Source: Escherichia phage skuden. Taken from it: DNA of 64,000 nucleotides. Positions 26,845 through 62,773 of the stretch are shown piece by piece. A program made the position numbers and the translations under genes. The stretch is taken from sequence record MN850585.1, one strand, 5' to 3'. The notes under the pieces are model-generated. The model did not search any database and was not told where the DNA came from. It saw nothing but the letters and a program-made list of their open reading frames with translations. Position 1 is the first letter of the stretch. Each line of letters begins with the position of its first letter.

Positions 26845-26920
26845 TGGAGAATCCGAAGGGACTCGAACCCTTATAAACCTGTTTTGCAGACAGGCACATA
26901 GCCATTTCTGTCACGGATTC
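26845..26920 (-). tRNA. tRNA-Cys (anticodon GCA)
   Basis: hand-folded cloverleaf; T-loop TTCGAGT; 7-bp acceptor; loop CTGCAAA; CCA encoded. Confidence 0.65.
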
Positions 26921-26924
26921 AAAT

Positions 26925-27017
26925 TGGAGGAAGATACCAGACTTGAACTGGTACACCGATTTCTCAGCTACTGGCAGTTTAGCAAACTGCTCCCTTACCT
27001 TTTAGGGTTAATCTTCC
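26925..27017 (-). tRNA. tRNA-Ser (anticodon GCT), class II
   Basis: 93 nt; acceptor GGAAGAT/ATCTTCC; T-loop TTCAAGT; anticodon loop TTGCTAA; long variable arm. Confidence 0.6.
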
Positions 27018-27018
27018 A

Positions 27019-27756
27019 TTATTTCTGTAATGCGCTCTTCATTTCTGGTGTTGCAATAGTGTCGATTACACCAGTTTTACAAGCATCATCAAACCAGTCT
27101 GGTAAGATACCTGCTAAGAACCCATTGATATTCGTTTTAAGGTACTCTGCAATAAGGGCAGCTTCTTCTTCAATCATCTGCACAACTTCATCTGCATAAG
27201 CTGTAATCTTTGAGATACCTTCATTAATCTTACTAACAGCCTGATTAGCTAAATCAGAAACAGTATCAAGACCCTTATCAATAGCGTCTTGTAAGTCACT
27301 TAACACACTGTTAACACTGTCTAGTGTGCTGTTAATCATGTCAATAGCTTTTTGACCATACTCTGTAGCAACACCCATAATACCACTGAATGGTGTACAA
27401 CCAACTTGTTCTCCTGCTGCACCCATAACATTGGAATATCCCTTTGCTACCTGCATACGTGATGAAAACTCATCAATAGACTTTTGACCATAGTCTGTTA
27501 GGGTCTTAGTGGTTGCTGTAGTGCTTGTCAGGCTTGTTGTAAAGCTGTTTAGAAGGACTGTTGTAAGTCCAGCAGCAACAAGCTTCTCCTTCATTGTAGG
27601 GTCTGTTACAGAGCTAATAGAGCTTACAAGTGATGTAGAGGCAGCTACGGTTCCACCGAGAACTGCTGCACCAGTAATAAGTGGGTTAGAAAACCCTTTA
27701 CCGGTTTTTAAGAGATTAAAAATCTCCTTACCTTGTTCTGTCATCTCTTTCATTAA
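27019..27756 (-). CDS. hypothetical protein (Ser/Thr-rich) inside tRNA cluster
   Basis: track ORF 27019..27969 has an N-terminal extension overlapping tRNAs; likely start at MKEMTEQ (27756). Confidence 0.4.
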   Translation of the reverse strand, partial: LMKEMTEQGKEIFNLLKTGKGFSNPLITGAAVLGGTVAASTSLVSSISSVTDPTMKEKLVAAGLTTVLLNSFTTSLTSTTATTKTLTDYGQKSIDEFSSRMQVAKGYSNVMGAAGEQVGCTPFSGIMGVATEYGQKAIDMINSTLDSVNSVLSDLQDAIDKGLDTVSDLANQAVSKINEGISKITAYADEVVQMIEEEAALIAEYLKTNINGFLAGILPDWFDDACKTGVIDTIATPEMKSALQK

Positions 27757-27769
27757 GCACCTTTGAAAT

Positions 27770-27845
27770 TGGTAGTCCAGTGGGATTTGAACCCTCTTCT
27801 CATGTTTTTCAGACACGCGCTTTACCATATAAGCTACTTGGACTA
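27770..27845 (-). tRNA. tRNA-Phe (anticodon GAA)
   Basis: perfect 7-bp acceptor TAGTCCA/TGGACTA; T-loop TTCAAAT; anticodon loop CTGAAAA. Confidence 0.6.
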
Positions 27846-27850
27846 TAAAT

Positions 27851-27926
27851 TGGGGTGACCTACGGGATTTGAACCCGTATAGACCATGTTCACAGCATGG
27901 GTCATTACCATTTATGATAAGGCCAC
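27851..27926 (-). tRNA. tRNA-His (anticodon GTG)
   Basis: T-arm ACGGG-TTCAAAT-CCCGT; anticodon stem CCATG/CATGG with loop CTGTGAA. Confidence 0.65.
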
Positions 27927-27957
27927 ATTTAAGGACTCTCGTAAGAACCCTTAGAAG

Positions 27958-58370: not shown

Positions 58371-58387
58371 AGTCTTCTCCAGAAATT

Positions 58388-58408
58388 AAAAAGGCTCCCG
58401 TAGGAGCC
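58388..58408 (-). terminator. rho-independent terminator after nadV
   Basis: minus-strand RNA GGCTCC-TACG-GGAGCC then TTTTT. Confidence 0.6.
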
Positions 58409-58423
58409 TCTTATCATATACTT

Positions 58424-60205
58424 TTAAAGCTGCTTGTCAATATTATTTCGAATATCACCAAGAGATGTGTAACCGAACTGCTCAGAGTCACTAAAGACTA
58501 AACGTAAAGCACAAGCTGGATGTTCAAGCACATCTGCAAAGCTCTGGAATCCATAGCCATCTACAGCTTTCAGCTTATCACCATCCCACATAGGTGCTAC
58601 ACCACCAAAAGCAGACTTCTTAACACCACTATCTGTTTTAGGGTCTTTTGCAAGCATAATCTCTTTACCACCAATACTTGCAAGAGTTGCTTTGACAGCA
58701 AATGCAAAGGTGTCACGAGTCATGTACTGGTAAGTGTAAGAACCTACACCAAACACTACGTTAGAGCTTGCAAAACCCATTTCATACAAACGCTTCAAGA
58801 TTTCGTTTGCACGTTCCAACGTGATAGAGTCACCATAAATAAGCCCGATGTGCTCATCCAGTACTTTAAAACCTTTAGAGTTGATAGTTCCTCCAAAGAT
58901 GTTATACAGTGTCTTGATAGCTCCATCAATCTCAGCTACAGGACGTGTTACAACGTTTGCAGAACCAACCATATAAGCATTTTTCAACATCACTGTATCA
59001 GCAACTTCAAAGTCTTCTCTGTCAACAACCATTTCGTAGCCTTCTGATAGTAGCCATCCAGCAATACCATAGCTGATGTTTTCAAGCTTCATGTTCAGAA
59101 CAGCATCCAACATTGTGTCACTAGCTTCCAGCTTGCTTAGGTGCTCGTAATAAGCCTTTTTAGCACACTCTAAGTGGATTGCTTTATAACCTGTGACAAT
59201 GTGTACAGGGTCTCCAGAGTCAGGACGAATTACCAGTTTTCCATCACGTTCCATAATTTCTTTACGAAGTGCTGGTAAAATTTCTGACACAGTTCTCCAG
59301 AAGTTATAAGTGTCTGAAACAACACTTGCAATACCTGTTGGGTAAGTTTCTGTTAAGAAACGACGGAAGGTTTGTAACTCACCTTTAAAGCGTCTTTCTT
59401 CTTCAATCAACTCATTACCACCTTCCCAAGCAATGTTTGCACACATTACAGAGTGCTCAGTGGCTGGTACAGAGCTACCAATATCAGAGATTGGGTAGGA
59501 CTGTCCATAGATTCGTTTAGCCGTATACACAGCAGGGAAGCTATCAGTTCCTTTAAAGCTGGTTAAGTGGCCTACAGCGTTAAATGCGTCATCAGTAAAG
59601 CCGGACATACCACGCATAGCAAAGTCATGGCACTGATAAGGCAAATGCAAGTCGTTGTCACAAGTAAGGTCAGCCCACTTCTTACAGATACGTTTGTAGT
59701 GCAATGCAATAGTTGCAATGGTACAAGCCTTCCAAATCTCAGCAGAGAAAGCATCTTCCAGATAGCCTGCTACCCAATGGAAACCTGAAACAGTGTTCTG
59801 GAAAACAATCATCGGAACACGCATAGGGACAACTGTGCCCTCTTCTACAGCGTATACTTCAACTGGTAGATAACCTAAGTCGTGAAGTGCTTCCCAATGC
59901 TCTCGACCGATAGCATCTTTGCCCAGAACACCATTCATGACTTCTAAGATTTCGTCAATTGCTTCTTTTTTGTCACGTTCAAAGAACGTAGCATTCCAGT
60001 GGTCTATCAAGTAATCTTTAACAAAACGTTGAATACCAAAAGCGACTACACCATCAATTGCTAATGGACTGTTAAACCATTTGTCGCTACGTGGTGTCAG
60101 GTTCAACATAAGATATTGCGTAGCATCTGGATACTGATATATATGTGATGCCTTGTAAGCATCTGCATTAAGACCTGCTGGTACTGCGTAAAGTGACTTA
60201 CTCAT
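58424..60205 (-). CDS. nadV: nicotinamide phosphoribosyltransferase (NadV/Nampt)
   Basis: 593 aa; NADAYKASHIYQYP, HDFAMRGMSG...SFKGTDS, VPATEHS, VVSDTYN, IRPDSGDP align to Nampt motifs as recalled. Confidence 0.85.
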   Translation of the reverse strand: MSKSLYAVPAGLNADAYKASHIYQYPDATQYLMLNLTPRSDKWFNSPLAIDGVVAFGIQRFVKDYLIDHWNATFFERDKKEAIDEILEVMNGVLGKDAIGREHWEALHDLGYLPVEVYAVEEGTVVPMRVPMIVFQNTVSGFHWVAGYLEDAFSAEIWKACTIATIALHYKRICKKWADLTCDNDLHLPYQCHDFAMRGMSGFTDDAFNAVGHLTSFKGTDSFPAVYTAKRIYGQSYPISDIGSSVPATEHSVMCANIAWEGGNELIEEERRFKGELQTFRRFLTETYPTGIASVVSDTYNFWRTVSEILPALRKEIMERDGKLVIRPDSGDPVHIVTGYKAIHLECAKKAYYEHLSKLEASDTMLDAVLNMKLENISYGIAGWLLSEGYEMVVDREDFEVADTVMLKNAYMVGSANVVTRPVAEIDGAIKTLYNIFGGTINSKGFKVLDEHIGLIYGDSITLERANEILKRLYEMGFASSNVVFGVGSYTYQYMTRDTFAFAVKATLASIGGKEIMLAKDPKTDSGVKKSAFGGVAPMWDGDKLKAVDGYGFQSFADVLEHPACALRLVFSDSEQFGYTSLGDIRNNIDKQL

Positions 60206-60221
60206 ATTTTATCTCTCTCTC

Positions 60222-60713
60222 TTAGTTATGTCTTGCAAACTCACCATGAAGTTCTATTCGCTTTTTAATTACAGCTTCTTTTGCTTCTTCTACCGTTTTA
60301 AATCTTCCACAAAAGTATTCTTTATGGTAAAGCATGACTCTTGCTTTGTAAAGACCTGTTTGTTTACAAAAACTTACACCCTTCACACCAGTTTTATTAT
60401 TCTTGTATATACCCCTATTCCTCTGATTTTGTGACTTTGTGCTAAGTCTTAAATTCTCCAACTTATTATTAGATTTATCAAGGTCTATGTGGTCTATCTC
60501 ATATCCACTTGGTATCTCACCTCCAGACATAATCCATGCAATATTATGTGCATAGTACCTCTTCTTATTTATCTGGACTTGGATATAACCCTTCTTAGAC
60601 CTTGTGCCAGCAACATTACCAGCAATAGCGGTATTGCAAAGGGTTACTTTCCAAATTAGTAAACCTGTCTCCGGTTCGTATATTAGGTATTTTTCGAAGT
60701 AACCCTTATCCAT
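60222..60713 (-). CDS. HNH homing endonuclease with AP2-type DNA-binding domain
   Basis: 163 aa; HNH core YYAHNIAW...EIDHIDLDKSNNKLENLRL; C-terminal GVKGVSF...YKARV...FKTVEEA AP2-like; free-standing between nadV and prs. Confidence 0.7.
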   Translation of the reverse strand: MDKGYFEKYLIYEPETGLLIWKVTLCNTAIAGNVAGTRSKKGYIQVQINKKRYYAHNIAWIMSGGEIPSGYEIDHIDLDKSNNKLENLRLSTKSQNQRNRGIYKNNKTGVKGVSFCKQTGLYKARVMLYHKEYFCGRFKTVEEAKEAVIKKRIELHGEFARHN

Positions 60714-60721
60714 TTTAATAC

Positions 60722-61618
60722 CTAATCCAAATTTGCTACAGTAACTTGACTATAATGTGTTAAGCCACGGTCTTTAGCTTCGCCTAAAGAATTTGTAGTG
60801 TAAATATGGTCGATACCGTTGTCAAGAAGGTTTTCAACACCTTTAGAGAAGATACCATGTGTTACATAAAGCTCAACACGTTTTGCACCTGCTTCACGTA
60901 GGTGTTTAGCTGCCTCTACGAAGGTTCGACCACCATCACAGATATCATCAAGAATCATGACAGTTTTATCTGTCAAATCCACATCATCAAGGATTCGCAT
61001 ACCAGTAATTTCACCAGTCTGAAGGTTACGTACTTTAGACATTGTGATGTATGGTTTATCCACCTCTTTAGCAGTCTCTGCAATCTTCTTAGAAGCACCT
61101 GCATCTGGGGCTACTAAGTAATCAACCAGTGGGTCATTTGCATAATGGACTGCAATCTCCTTTTGAGGAATACTCTGGAAGCAATTGAAAAGGTTATCTG
61201 GAACGTAACTATGAGGGTCAACTGCACAGACTGCATCAAAACCCATTGCATTAACCTGTTGTGCAAACACTTTCAAAGCTGCTGCATCACCTTTAAACAT
61301 GTGACGGTCGTAACGTGCATTTGGCAAATAGTAAAAGATAGCAGTCCTCATAGCAAACTTATGAGGTACTAAATCATCAATTGCCTCTTTAGCGAGTGCC
61401 ACAGCAAATAATGTGTCTTTGTCATAACCCTTTACAATCATAATCACGTTGTTGATGGATGATGCAGCATAAGCAGTAAAATCAACAAACTCTGGTGAAA
61501 AATGTCCACCAATCTCACCAGAGGGAAATTGGACGATGTTAAACTCTTCTTCATGAGTCCCTTTAGTTGGTGAATGAACTGTAACACGGATAGATGTTTT
61601 CATAGTTTTCTCTCTCAA
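60722..61618 (-). CDS. prs: ribose-phosphate pyrophosphokinase (PRPP synthetase family)
   Basis: 298 aa; MILDDICDGGRTFVEAAKHLREAGAKRVELYVTHGIFS matches the PRPP-binding loop; LVAPDAG flexible loop. Confidence 0.8.
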   Translation of the reverse strand: MREKTMKTSIRVTVHSPTKGTHEEEFNIVQFPSGEIGGHFSPEFVDFTAYAASSINNVIMIVKGYDKDTLFAVALAKEAIDDLVPHKFAMRTAIFYYLPNARYDRHMFKGDAAALKVFAQQVNAMGFDAVCAVDPHSYVPDNLFNCFQSIPQKEIAVHYANDPLVDYLVAPDAGASKKIAETAKEVDKPYITMSKVRNLQTGEITGMRILDDVDLTDKTVMILDDICDGGRTFVEAAKHLREAGAKRVELYVTHGIFSKGVENLLDNGIDHIYTTNSLGEAKDRGLTHYSQVTVANLD

Positions 61619-61893
61619 TCAAAAGTTACGTTTGTTACTGCCATTGCAGATTTGCATTTTGCAGGGTCTACAACGTGGTAAAGTACACTACAGTTACCTG
61701 TGCTGTCTGGTACAGGTTTTACCCATTGATGCTTTATAGTTGGCTCTCCTAAGTCTTTGTAAGAACCATCTGTAAAGTTGTTTACCATCTCAAGTGCAAT
61801 TGGTTCTGGAACATGACCACGTATCATGTACATCTCACAACCATTACCACCTTCACTGACTAATGGTAAAATCTCCCACTTCTCTTTAGCCAT
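61615..61893 (-). CDS. hypothetical protein
   Basis: 92-aa ORF, start overlaps prs region. Confidence 0.4.
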   Translation of the reverse strand: MAKEKWEILPLVSEGGNGCEMYMIRGHVPEPIALEMVNNFTDGSYKDLGEPTIKHQWVKPVPDSTGNCSVLYHVVDPAKCKSAMAVTNVTFD

Positions 61894-62401
61894 TGTAAGT
61901 TGCCCTATAAACTGTCTCGAACTTCAACAGGAGAGATATTGCCAAATCTGTATAGTTGTTGTCAAGCACATCTGGCATATTATTTTTGATATATTTCTCT
62001 TGCTCTTCATAGGCCATCTTAGGGATGCTTAGAAGACTATCACCTTGATTCTGATTATCAAGTTTAGTCTGAATAAACCAGTTTGCACAGTGATGCTCAC
62101 CACCCTTTGTAACAGGCTTGTGGTGACCTAATGTGAAGGACTGACTACCTGTGTATCTGCAAAGTTTATTGAGCACTGTAATGGTGTTCTTCACGACAAA
62201 CAATTCATACAGATTATCTATAGTGTAATGTGGGTAATAGCGGAATAGTGCTCTTTCACGAGTACTCTCACGATTCCAGAGAATCATGTGATTCGAGTTA
62301 GAAGGGTCGTATTGGTGAGAGTCAATGAACTCTTGACGTTCCTCAAAGCTGAGTCTTAACACTGACATTGCAGCAGAACGTTTCAGGTTTGACAGATACA
62401 T
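61886..62401 (-). CDS. HNH-family endonuclease (putative)
   Basis: 171 aa; His-rich LGHHKPVTKGGEHHCANWFIQTKLDN resembles an HNH core. Confidence 0.5.
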   Translation of the reverse strand: MYLSNLKRSAAMSVLRLSFEERQEFIDSHQYDPSNSNHMILWNRESTRERALFRYYPHYTIDNLYELFVVKNTITVLNKLCRYTGSQSFTLGHHKPVTKGGEHHCANWFIQTKLDNQNQGDSLLSIPKMAYEEQEKYIKNNMPDVLDNNYTDLAISLLLKFETVYRATYNG

Positions 62402-62452
62402 ATTATCTCCAAAATAAAAAGGGAACCTTTACAGTCCCCTTATAGTATCTGT

Positions 62453-62773
62453 TTACTGAGCTACTTTCAAGATGCTTGTAAATGAGATTTCACTCTCATC
62501 CATAAACTCTTTTGCTTCTCCAGTAACTTTTACAAAGTTATCTAGGCAGATAATCTTCTTATCTTTCTTGCTGTAGGTTAGCTTAACCTTTTCAATATCT
62601 TTCTTAGAGCTTTTCTCTTCATTGAAGAGTTTTACAGCCTCTTTAAATGGTAGATATGAGCCGTCATTGTCACTAATGAACCCTGTACCACAATAGTAGT
62701 AGTTATACTCTTTAGCCATAAACTGGCACAGTACGAAAATCTGTAATTTACGAGTATTATAAACTTTGTTCAT
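62453..62773 (-). CDS. hypothetical protein
   Basis: 106-aa ORF. Confidence 0.4.
   Translation of the reverse strand: MNKVYNTRKLQIFVLCQFMAKEYNYYYCGTGFISDNDGSYLPFKEAVKLFNEEKSSKKDIEKVKLTYSKKDKKIICLDNFVKVTGEAKEFMDESEISFTSILKVAQ

Follow-up and report, generated by a model that had tools for sequence, protein, structure and literature searches.

We analysed a gene cluster on the minus strand of Escherichia phage skuden (MN850585.1), within a window of 64,000 nucleotides (nt) that is the whole stretch of DNA under study. The cluster holds two enzyme genes annotated prs and nadV (or nampt), separated by a free-standing homing endonuclease gene of the HNH type. The enzyme pair is very probably the NARP1 operon for reconstitution of nicotinamide adenine dinucleotide (NAD+), encoding Adps and Namat, into which the endonuclease gene has been inserted. 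The listing of open reading frames (ORFs) places minus-strand frames at exactly 58424..60205 (593 amino acids), 60222..60713 (163 amino acids), 60722..61618 (298 amino acids, TTG start) and 61886..62401 (171 amino acids). Recognisable prs and nadV genes at these positions, as named in the original prediction, were confirmed by this listing and by Pfam and PHROG matches. Transcription runs from adps ("prs") through the HNH gene to namat ("nadV"). The namat start lies 516 nt downstream of the adps stop on the same strand, with the HNH gene as the sole gene between; its ORF starts 8 nt past the adps stop and ends 16 nt ahead of the namat ATG. The features of this segment are as follows.

58424..60205, minus strand: namat, predicted nicotinamide ADP-ribose transferase of NARP1; 593 amino acids, 98% identity to Bas63 gp80.
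58712..58744, minus strand: selectivity-clamp helix (SCH) of Namat, GSYTYQYMTRD, codons 488–498.
58925..59179, minus strand: ~85-amino-acid insertion subdomain of Ounavirinae-type Namat, codons ~343–427; a gap in alignments.
60106..60205, minus strand: HNH-linked haplotype block at the 5' end of namat (~65–100 nt); probably a co-conversion tract and the area of the putative homing site.
60206..60221, minus strand: right junction, spacer GAGAGAGAGATAAAAT, the namat ribosome-binding region; homology with HNH-less alleles restarts at GAGAGAGA.
60222..60713, minus strand: free-standing HNH_3 plus AP2-like homing endonuclease gene, 163 amino acids; assigned by Pfam and by PHROG 99 (3.5e-69).
60714..60721, minus strand: left junction, where the 8-nt spacer GTATTAAA separates the adps TAG stop from the HNH ATG; HNH-less alleles have a conserved hairpin that is lacking here.
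60722..61603, minus strand: adps, predicted ADP-ribose pyrophosphokinase of NARP1; 293 amino acids from the ATG at 61603, maximal ORF to the TTG at 61618.

NARP1 was defined by Osterman et al. (bioRxiv 10.1101/2024.02.11.579819), starting from genes 79 and 80 of phage Bas63 (JohannRWettstein; MZ501086, Felixounavirus, locus L007 here), which were annotated prs and nampt. Deletion of the operon made Bas63 sensitive to SIR2-HerA, protection was independent of host pncC and nadR, and ADP-ribose-pyrophosphate (ADPR-PP) was found in infected cells (10.1101/2024.02.11.579819). The purified "Prs" homologue of SpβL1 (SpbetaL1 below) converted ADP-ribose (ADPR) and ATP to ADPR-PP, with no measurable product in a Prs-activity assay, and the SpβL1 "Nampt" homologue formed NAD+ from ADPR-PP and nicotinamide; Namat prefers ADPR-PP (10.1101/2024.02.11.579819). 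The enzymes were named Adps and Namat, and the pathway NARP1, in the same work (10.1101/2024.02.11.579819).

The window carries the same operon in the same genus as that definition, and the pair qualifies as NARP1 by every sequence-level criterion tested. Its 4.5-kb region shares 95–96% nucleotide identity with many FelixO1-like phages of Escherichia and Salmonella (Felixounavirus). The 593-amino-acid ORF matches Pfam NAPRTase (5.7e-35) and NAMPT_N, and PHROG 448 "nicotinamide phosphoribosyl transferase" (8e-202); the identity to Bas63 gp80 extends over all 593 residues. The best sequence match in the Protein Data Bank (PDB) is SpbetaL1 Namat (9W5X/9W5W, 1.3e-128). An AlphaFold2 model of the window protein (mean predicted local distance difference test, pLDDT, 93.2) has the same Namat structures, 9W5X/9W5W, as its best PDB fold match (template modelling score, TM, 0.95 normalised to target).

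Namat is defined by a Nampt-like catalytic core together with an adenine "selectivity clamp" consisting of the SCH motif and a variable loop, the SCL (PMC12774641, NAR 2026). The SCH motif is GSXΦXΦXΦTRD with X aromatic, and the adenine-stacking residue of the SCL is either an Arg at position 3 or a Lys/Tyr followed by the stacking residue (PMC12774641). SpbetaL1 Namat residues (PDB 9W5X numbering) were mapped onto the window protein through a phmmer alignment. D13/Y15 correspond to D15/Y17, F189/R192/D215 to F195/R198/D221, A242 and the catalytic His to A248 and H251, R306/D308 to R327/D329, and G360/D361 to G458/D459. All SpbetaL1 ligand-contact residues thus have a counterpart, R497 and D498 are also conserved, and F195, D221, R327 and H251 are invariant across 38 homologues. 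The window SCH conforms to the motif with Met at Φ-3 (usually Asn or Val), whereas the genuine Nampt HdNadV (9KE8) reads GAQTYQRNTRD at this position. The window SCL is RSDKWF, with K42 followed by W43, identical to Bas63, for which PMC12774641 describes a Lys that precedes the stacking residue.

The ~85-amino-acid insertion at codons ~343–427 is absent from SpbetaL1 Namat and from Nampt and present in all relatives of ~590–610 amino acids down to 46% identity. AlphaFold2 models it confidently as a small α/β subdomain of helices and strands, and it has no Pfam match at E up to 10. In other Namat lineages this loop is occupied by different inserts. An intein or intron origin was considered and rejected on the clade-wide sequence conservation of the insert, its packing in the model and its presence in the functional Bas63 Namat.

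The second enzyme begins almost certainly at the ATG at 61603 (293 amino acids) and not at the TTG at 61618, because the ATG is preceded by GAGAGAGA, which is the ribosome-binding motif of namat too, and agrees with the Bas63 annotation; the TTG falls within the stop region of the upstream ORF. The 298-amino-acid frame matches Pfam Pribosyltran and Pribosyl_synth and PHROG 619 "ribose-phosphate pyrophosphokinase" (3e-98), and its product is 79% identical to Bas63 gp79. In an alignment with archaeal PRS 4twb, Adps retains the Prs-type elements RxDR, DPH, DDICDGGRT and the loop lysine of SK(V)R. The lysine of MSKVRN aligns with the 4twb loop lysine and is presumably equivalent to SpbetaL1 K162 (B. 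subtilis Prs K197). No catalytic residue, whose loss would have spoken against the original prediction, is lost in either enzyme on alignment. In NCBIfam, Adps passes the broad TIGR01251 only and falls below every Prs equivalog cut-off (≤105.7 bits versus ≥296). Its assignment to the phage Adps clade was made from identity, PHROG and model scores, without an explicit tree. Two Adps allele lineages of ~79% protein identity were observed within Felixounavirus (the window versus L007, L026, L027 and L033). Their divergence lies mostly in the N-terminal half (nucleotide identity 0.60–0.72, versus 0.85–0.96 in the 3' 300 nt), a pattern indicative of mosaic recombination within adps.

The identity of 79% and 98% to the Bas63 proteins places the pair, as the original prediction proposed, among phage NAD+-reconstitution modules that counter host defence. 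Together with the conserved motifs, it also leads us to expect both enzymatic steps in the window phage. An NAD+-depleting defence (e.g. SIR2-HerA, Thoeris, DSR1/2 or SEFIR) would cleave NAD+ to ADP-ribose and nicotinamide. Adps would then move pyrophosphate from ATP to ADP-ribose to give ADPR-PP, and Namat would couple ADPR-PP with nicotinamide directly to NAD+.

This chemistry differs from that of the original prediction, which had NAD+ regenerated from nicotinamide and ribose-5-phosphate. On that route Prs makes phosphoribosyl pyrophosphate (PRPP) from ribose-5-phosphate and Nampt joins it to nicotinamide, giving nicotinamide mononucleotide (NMN). That annotation-based route has been tested and rejected for the Bas63 operon. 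For the window, a genuine PRPP synthetase and Nampt making NMN, with a host or phage NMN adenylyltransferase completing NAD+ in a NARP2-like manner, is very unlikely. The Pfam, PHROG and NCBIfam names do read Prs and Nampt/NAPRTase, and a search of NCBIfam release 20 (June 2026) gave neither protein a match specific to Adps or Namat. Namat also retains PRPP-dependent NMN synthesis in vitro, at about half of human Nampt's PRPP-to-NMN activity (PMC12774641). Against this, the near-identical Bas63 operon is active in a pncC/nadR double-deletion host and yields ADPR-PP, the SpbetaL1 Adps homologue gives no measurable product in the Prs assay, and Namat favours ADPR-PP. Two features of the window proteins point the same way: the adenine-clamp motif that HdNadV does not share, and the Adps scores below all Prs equivalog cut-offs. 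Prs and Nampt alone reach NMN only. A NatV-like NMN adenylyltransferase was found neither in the operon nor among the annotations of the Bas63 genome, where many hypothetical proteins are unprofiled, and the window was not scanned exhaustively for one.

The gene inserted between adps and namat encodes a complete HNH_3 domain (1.6e-19, model positions 1–46 of 46) and an AP2 match (4.7e-4, 20.8 bits) below the Pfam cut-off of 33.3. An HNH-AP2 endonuclease lying exactly between the two genes had been proposed, and both the position (8 nt from the adps stop, 16 nt to the namat ATG) and the HNH_3 domain bear this out, with the AP2 part sub-threshold. The C-terminal half of the protein matches HNH-endonuclease PHROGs, and the His/Asn/Asn motif EIDHID...NNKLENL...QNQRN is intact in 7/7 HNH copies. 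A PDB sequence search and NCBIfam returned no match, no macro or RyR domain was found, and the rest of the window holds no paralogue of it.

Comparison of the nadV-prs junction among related phages, which the original prediction had suggested, identified the HNH gene as a mobile insertion. It occurs in 60 of ~250 related INPHARED records (~24%), including FelixO1, Moogle/Mijalis and phiSUSP1, always at this single site, and in 6/28 IMG/VR loci. Homing endonucleases are known to vary in number among Felixounaviruses, and the HNH-containing arrangement is annotated in dozens of GenBank records, FelixO1 among them. Beyond these copies, no HNH relative in the phage collection reaches 45% identity; the broad family is found in 2975 records in unrelated contexts. 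All copies are intact at 163 amino acids with ratios of non-synonymous to synonymous divergence (dN/dS) of 0.07–0.20; the gene is under purifying selection. Between genera the HNH proteins share 90–94% amino-acid identity, and Adps and Namat 74–76%. Synonymous divergence (dS) between the window and the phiSUSP1-type locus L030 is 0.44 for the HNH gene, 1.28 for adps and 1.19 for namat nt 100–1020. Versus L024 it is 0.01 for the HNH gene and 0.42 for adps.

The HNH gene shows the hallmarks of a selfish, mobile homing endonuclease gene: presence/absence polymorphism, cross-genus transfer and a co-conversion signature (described below). Purifying selection would equally suit a functional NARP1 accessory, and accessory genes do hold this position in other NARP1 operons (compare the macro-domain phosphatase Adpp and RyDEP). 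Such a role for the HNH-AP2 protein is nevertheless extremely improbable. HNH_3 plus AP2 is a standard phage homing endonuclease architecture with relatives spread over unrelated contexts, only about a quarter of close relatives carry the gene, and Bas63, which lacks it, still counters defence. Transfer between genera and co-conversion of the flank are typical of homing.

The alignment with Bas63 and mio reveals what the insertion removed. In HNH-less genomes the ~45-nt adps-namat spacer contains a GC hairpin, followed by GAGAGAGA and then ATG ACT. The hairpin has a 6-bp GC stem (GGGGCU, tetraloop, AGCCCC, followed by AUUUU) with a folding energy of -11.5 to -12.8 kcal/mol, and lies within L007:9629-9673 in Bas63 and in the equivalent spacer of L002 and L010–L035, in three genera. 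The loop varies while the stem is nearly invariant, which leaves no convincing covariation in the stem. A terminator scanner did not call the hairpin, the T-run being too short; attenuation and mRNA stabilisation are its possible roles. The arrangement is different in seven loci, the window included: here the adps TAG stop is followed 8 nt on by the HNH ORF, its TAA stop, and then GAGAGAGA...ATG AGT. No equivalent hairpin is present at the window junctions (60206–60221 and 60714–60721). Judged from the alignment, the HNH insertion replaced ~30 nt including the hairpin and left both enzyme ORFs intact.

The footprint of the HNH gene extends into namat. Identity to the window over namat nt 1–100 is 0.92–1.00 in HNH-containing loci and 0.75–0.83 in the 11 binned HNH-less loci, the low values being found within Felixounavirus and in distant genera alike. 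Past nt 100 the two classes are indistinguishable, and comparisons across genera place the end of the window-type block near nt 65. The dS of namat nt 1–99 is 0.35 versus L030 and 0 versus L024, following the HNH gene and not the flanks. Position 5 of namat (ACT versus AGT, T2S) is G in 7/7 HNH-containing loci and C in 21/21 distinct HNH-less loci aligned. The adps TAG stop is HNH-specific, and the adps side of the junction has no comparable haplotype signal. The simplest reading of the namat 5' block is a short asymmetric co-conversion tract from classical intronless homing. In HNH-less alleles, the HNH enzyme would most likely cut at a site close to the adps-namat junction or to the 5' end of namat; in a mixed infection, repair from the HNH-containing genome would then copy in the HNH gene and ~65–100 nt of namat.

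Alternatively, the HNH gene could be ancestral and repeatedly lost, so that the polymorphism arose by deletion and not by homing. The dS between HNH copies reaches 0.3–0.46, indicating a lineage that is not very young, and three HNH-less loci with an HNH-type namat 5' block could be loss products. We consider this distinctly unlikely. The HNH gene is ~3-fold less diverged than its flanks between genera, and its divergence is near zero among Felixounavirus lineages with an adps dS of 0.42. HNH-less alleles of three genera moreover share one conserved hairpin, which is the simpler ancestral state.

Several points weigh against reading the locus as a NARP1 operon invaded by homing. The window Adps shares no more than 79% identity with the Bas63 allele used in the experiments, and the choice between ADPR and ribose-5-phosphate has no known structural determinant. 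Some NMN synthesis by Namat remains conceivable given its PRPP-to-NMN activity in vitro. The HNH-less loci L016, L021 and L023 carry the HNH-type namat block from ~nt 20 on; they may be recombinants or alleles that predate the invasion. Common descent of the HNH-containing phages could account for part of the haplotype block, although the cross-genus pattern argues otherwise. Finally, we infer both the site and the activity of endonuclease cleavage from sequence comparison.

Upstream of adps lie two further genes, and hairpins bracket the unit.

58389..58412, minus strand: terminator-like hairpin directly after the namat stop; also in Bas63.
61615..61893, minus strand: ORF92, unknown function; PHROG 4726 (4e-60); overlaps the ORF171 stop and abuts adps.
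61886..62401, minus strand: ORF171, core gene with the HNH-like motif GHHKPVTKGGEHHCANWFIQTKLDNQNQG and first gene of the unit; PHROG 3500 (5.6e-90), unknown function.
62419..62441, minus strand: terminator-like hairpin ahead of ORF171; a promoter-like site (62470–62442) overlaps it; also in Bas63.

ORF171, ORF92, adps, the HNH gene and namat are thus bracketed by hairpins at 62441–62419 and 58412–58389, and their ORFs overlap or abut. ORF171 and ORF92 are translationally linked to adps. Relatives down to 47–50% identity retain ORF171 and a small ORF (92 amino acids here, 44 amino acids in L036:319-3606) in overlapping arrangement directly upstream of adps. ORF92 is conserved in relatives except L012. 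Neither ORF92 nor ORF171 has a match in Pfam (E up to 10) or NCBIfam.

A second HNH-like gene had been noted at ORF171. The gene is there and is plausibly HNH-like: GHHKPVTKGGEHHCANWFIQTKLDNQNQG has canonical HNH spacing (H94-x-P96-x3-G100G101-x5-N107-x8-N116) that is invariant in 15 homologues, and the protein has a weak match to HNH PHROG 2214 (5e-4). Its AlphaFold2 model (pLDDT 60, from a shallow 15-sequence alignment) places a ββα element at residues 89–121. Foldseek against the PDB gave a best E-value of 0.87, with several HNH domains among the non-significant matches. It is not a second mobile insertion. ORF171 occurs in every related locus examined, and its position directly upstream of adps is kept in a metagenomic relative at 47–50% identity; it is therefore a fixed core gene. 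Separately, the N-terminal segment LSFEERQEFIDSHQYDPSNSNHM (residues 12–45) resembles the helix 2–3 motif of Staphylococcus protein A domains. The ORF171 profile matches protein A repeats among PDB sequences at 5e-13 when summed over five short-motif repeats (the comparison includes LSFEERQEFIDSHQYDPSNS), with single-domain E-values of 0.3–2. The likeness probably reflects chance or a short helical motif common to both.

All genes between 54 and 64 kb lie on the minus strand, the G+C content of the stretch is ~39%, and neighbouring genes include rIIA, rIIB and NrdG. A strong sigma-70-like promoter match (TTGACA, 16-nt spacer, TATGAT; 11/12) at 58413–58440 covers the last namat codons before the hairpin; read as 58440–58413 it points into the next genes, and its conservation extends to Bas63. 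An additional gene of ~345 nt, bas63_0081 (L007:11509-11853), lies between namat and the ORF111 homologue in Bas63 and several loci (L023, L025 and L026). The window is without it (58371–58423), a second presence/absence polymorphism beside the operon. ORF111 itself has no match in Pfam (E up to 10) or NCBIfam. On the other side, a 106-amino-acid ORF at 62453–62773 (DUF7390, PHROG 4462) is named "putative HNH homing endonuclease" in several GenBank relatives and gave no HNH signal here; phages that are alike in other respects differ in which of its two allele types, ~50% identical, they have. Twenty-five tRNA genes form an array at 26845–31675 on the minus strand, as is typical of Felixounavirus; Rfam confirms 23 of them, and the Rfam search found tRNAs only.

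The pair and its pathway are already known; the finding was correctly spotted and its chemistry needed correction. The understanding of NARP1 is unchanged by these results. They illustrate how database names (Prs, NadV/Nampt, "nicotinate phosphoribosyltransferase") mislead on the chemistry of a widespread phage counter-defence pathway. They also add a modest but clear-cut case, spanning three Ounavirinae genera, of a homing endonuclease that cycles through an anti-defence operon, with a mapped co-conversion footprint. In the literature searched we found no description of this footprint, of the intercistronic hairpin loss, of the ~85-amino-acid Namat subdomain (343–427) or of the fixed upstream HNH-like gene. 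The junction comparison could serve to map the HNH target and to ask whether Adps:Namat stoichiometry matters. A more speculative proposal, which we hold to be rather unlikely, is that the HNH gene could shift the Adps:Namat expression ratio by replacing the hairpin and exchange anti-defence alleles between genera by transfer of the namat 5' region (potentially the whole operon), and that, separately, ORF171 and ORF92 could be NARP1 components.

The closest known system is the Bas63 NARP1 operon, which shares with the window the genus, the gene order ORF171-ORF92-adps-namat, rIIA and rIIB further downstream, and a Namat of 593 amino acids. Where Bas63 has a 45-nt intergenic region with the GC hairpin, the window has a 492-nt HNH gene. 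The window further differs in its Adps allele (mainly the N-terminal half), its HNH-linked namat 5' haplotype and the absence of bas63_0081. SpbetaL1 Namat (9W5X/9W5W) has the catalytic core, SCH motif and fold in common with the window protein (TM 0.95, 37–38% identity). Relative to it, the window Namat has four additional SCL residues, K-W instead of R stacking the adenine, a 15-amino-acid insert and the ~85-amino-acid subdomain.

As an element, the HNH gene resembles the intergenic, free-standing homing endonucleases known from T4-like phages, such as the seg genes and mobE, the latter located between nrdA and nrdB; Edgell, Gibb and Belfort are said to have described these in 2010. They likewise lie between conserved operon genes, with presence/absence polymorphism and flank co-conversion. 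The window gene differs in its HNH_3 plus AP2-like domain pair and in having an anti-defence operon as its target. Extended NARP1 operons (NARP1-AP with Adpp, and DyoEdafos RyDEP) likewise have an extra gene in or beside adps-namat. The Adpp and RyDEP inserts are enzymes feeding ADPR into the pathway, whereas the window insert is a selfish element of the nuclease type.

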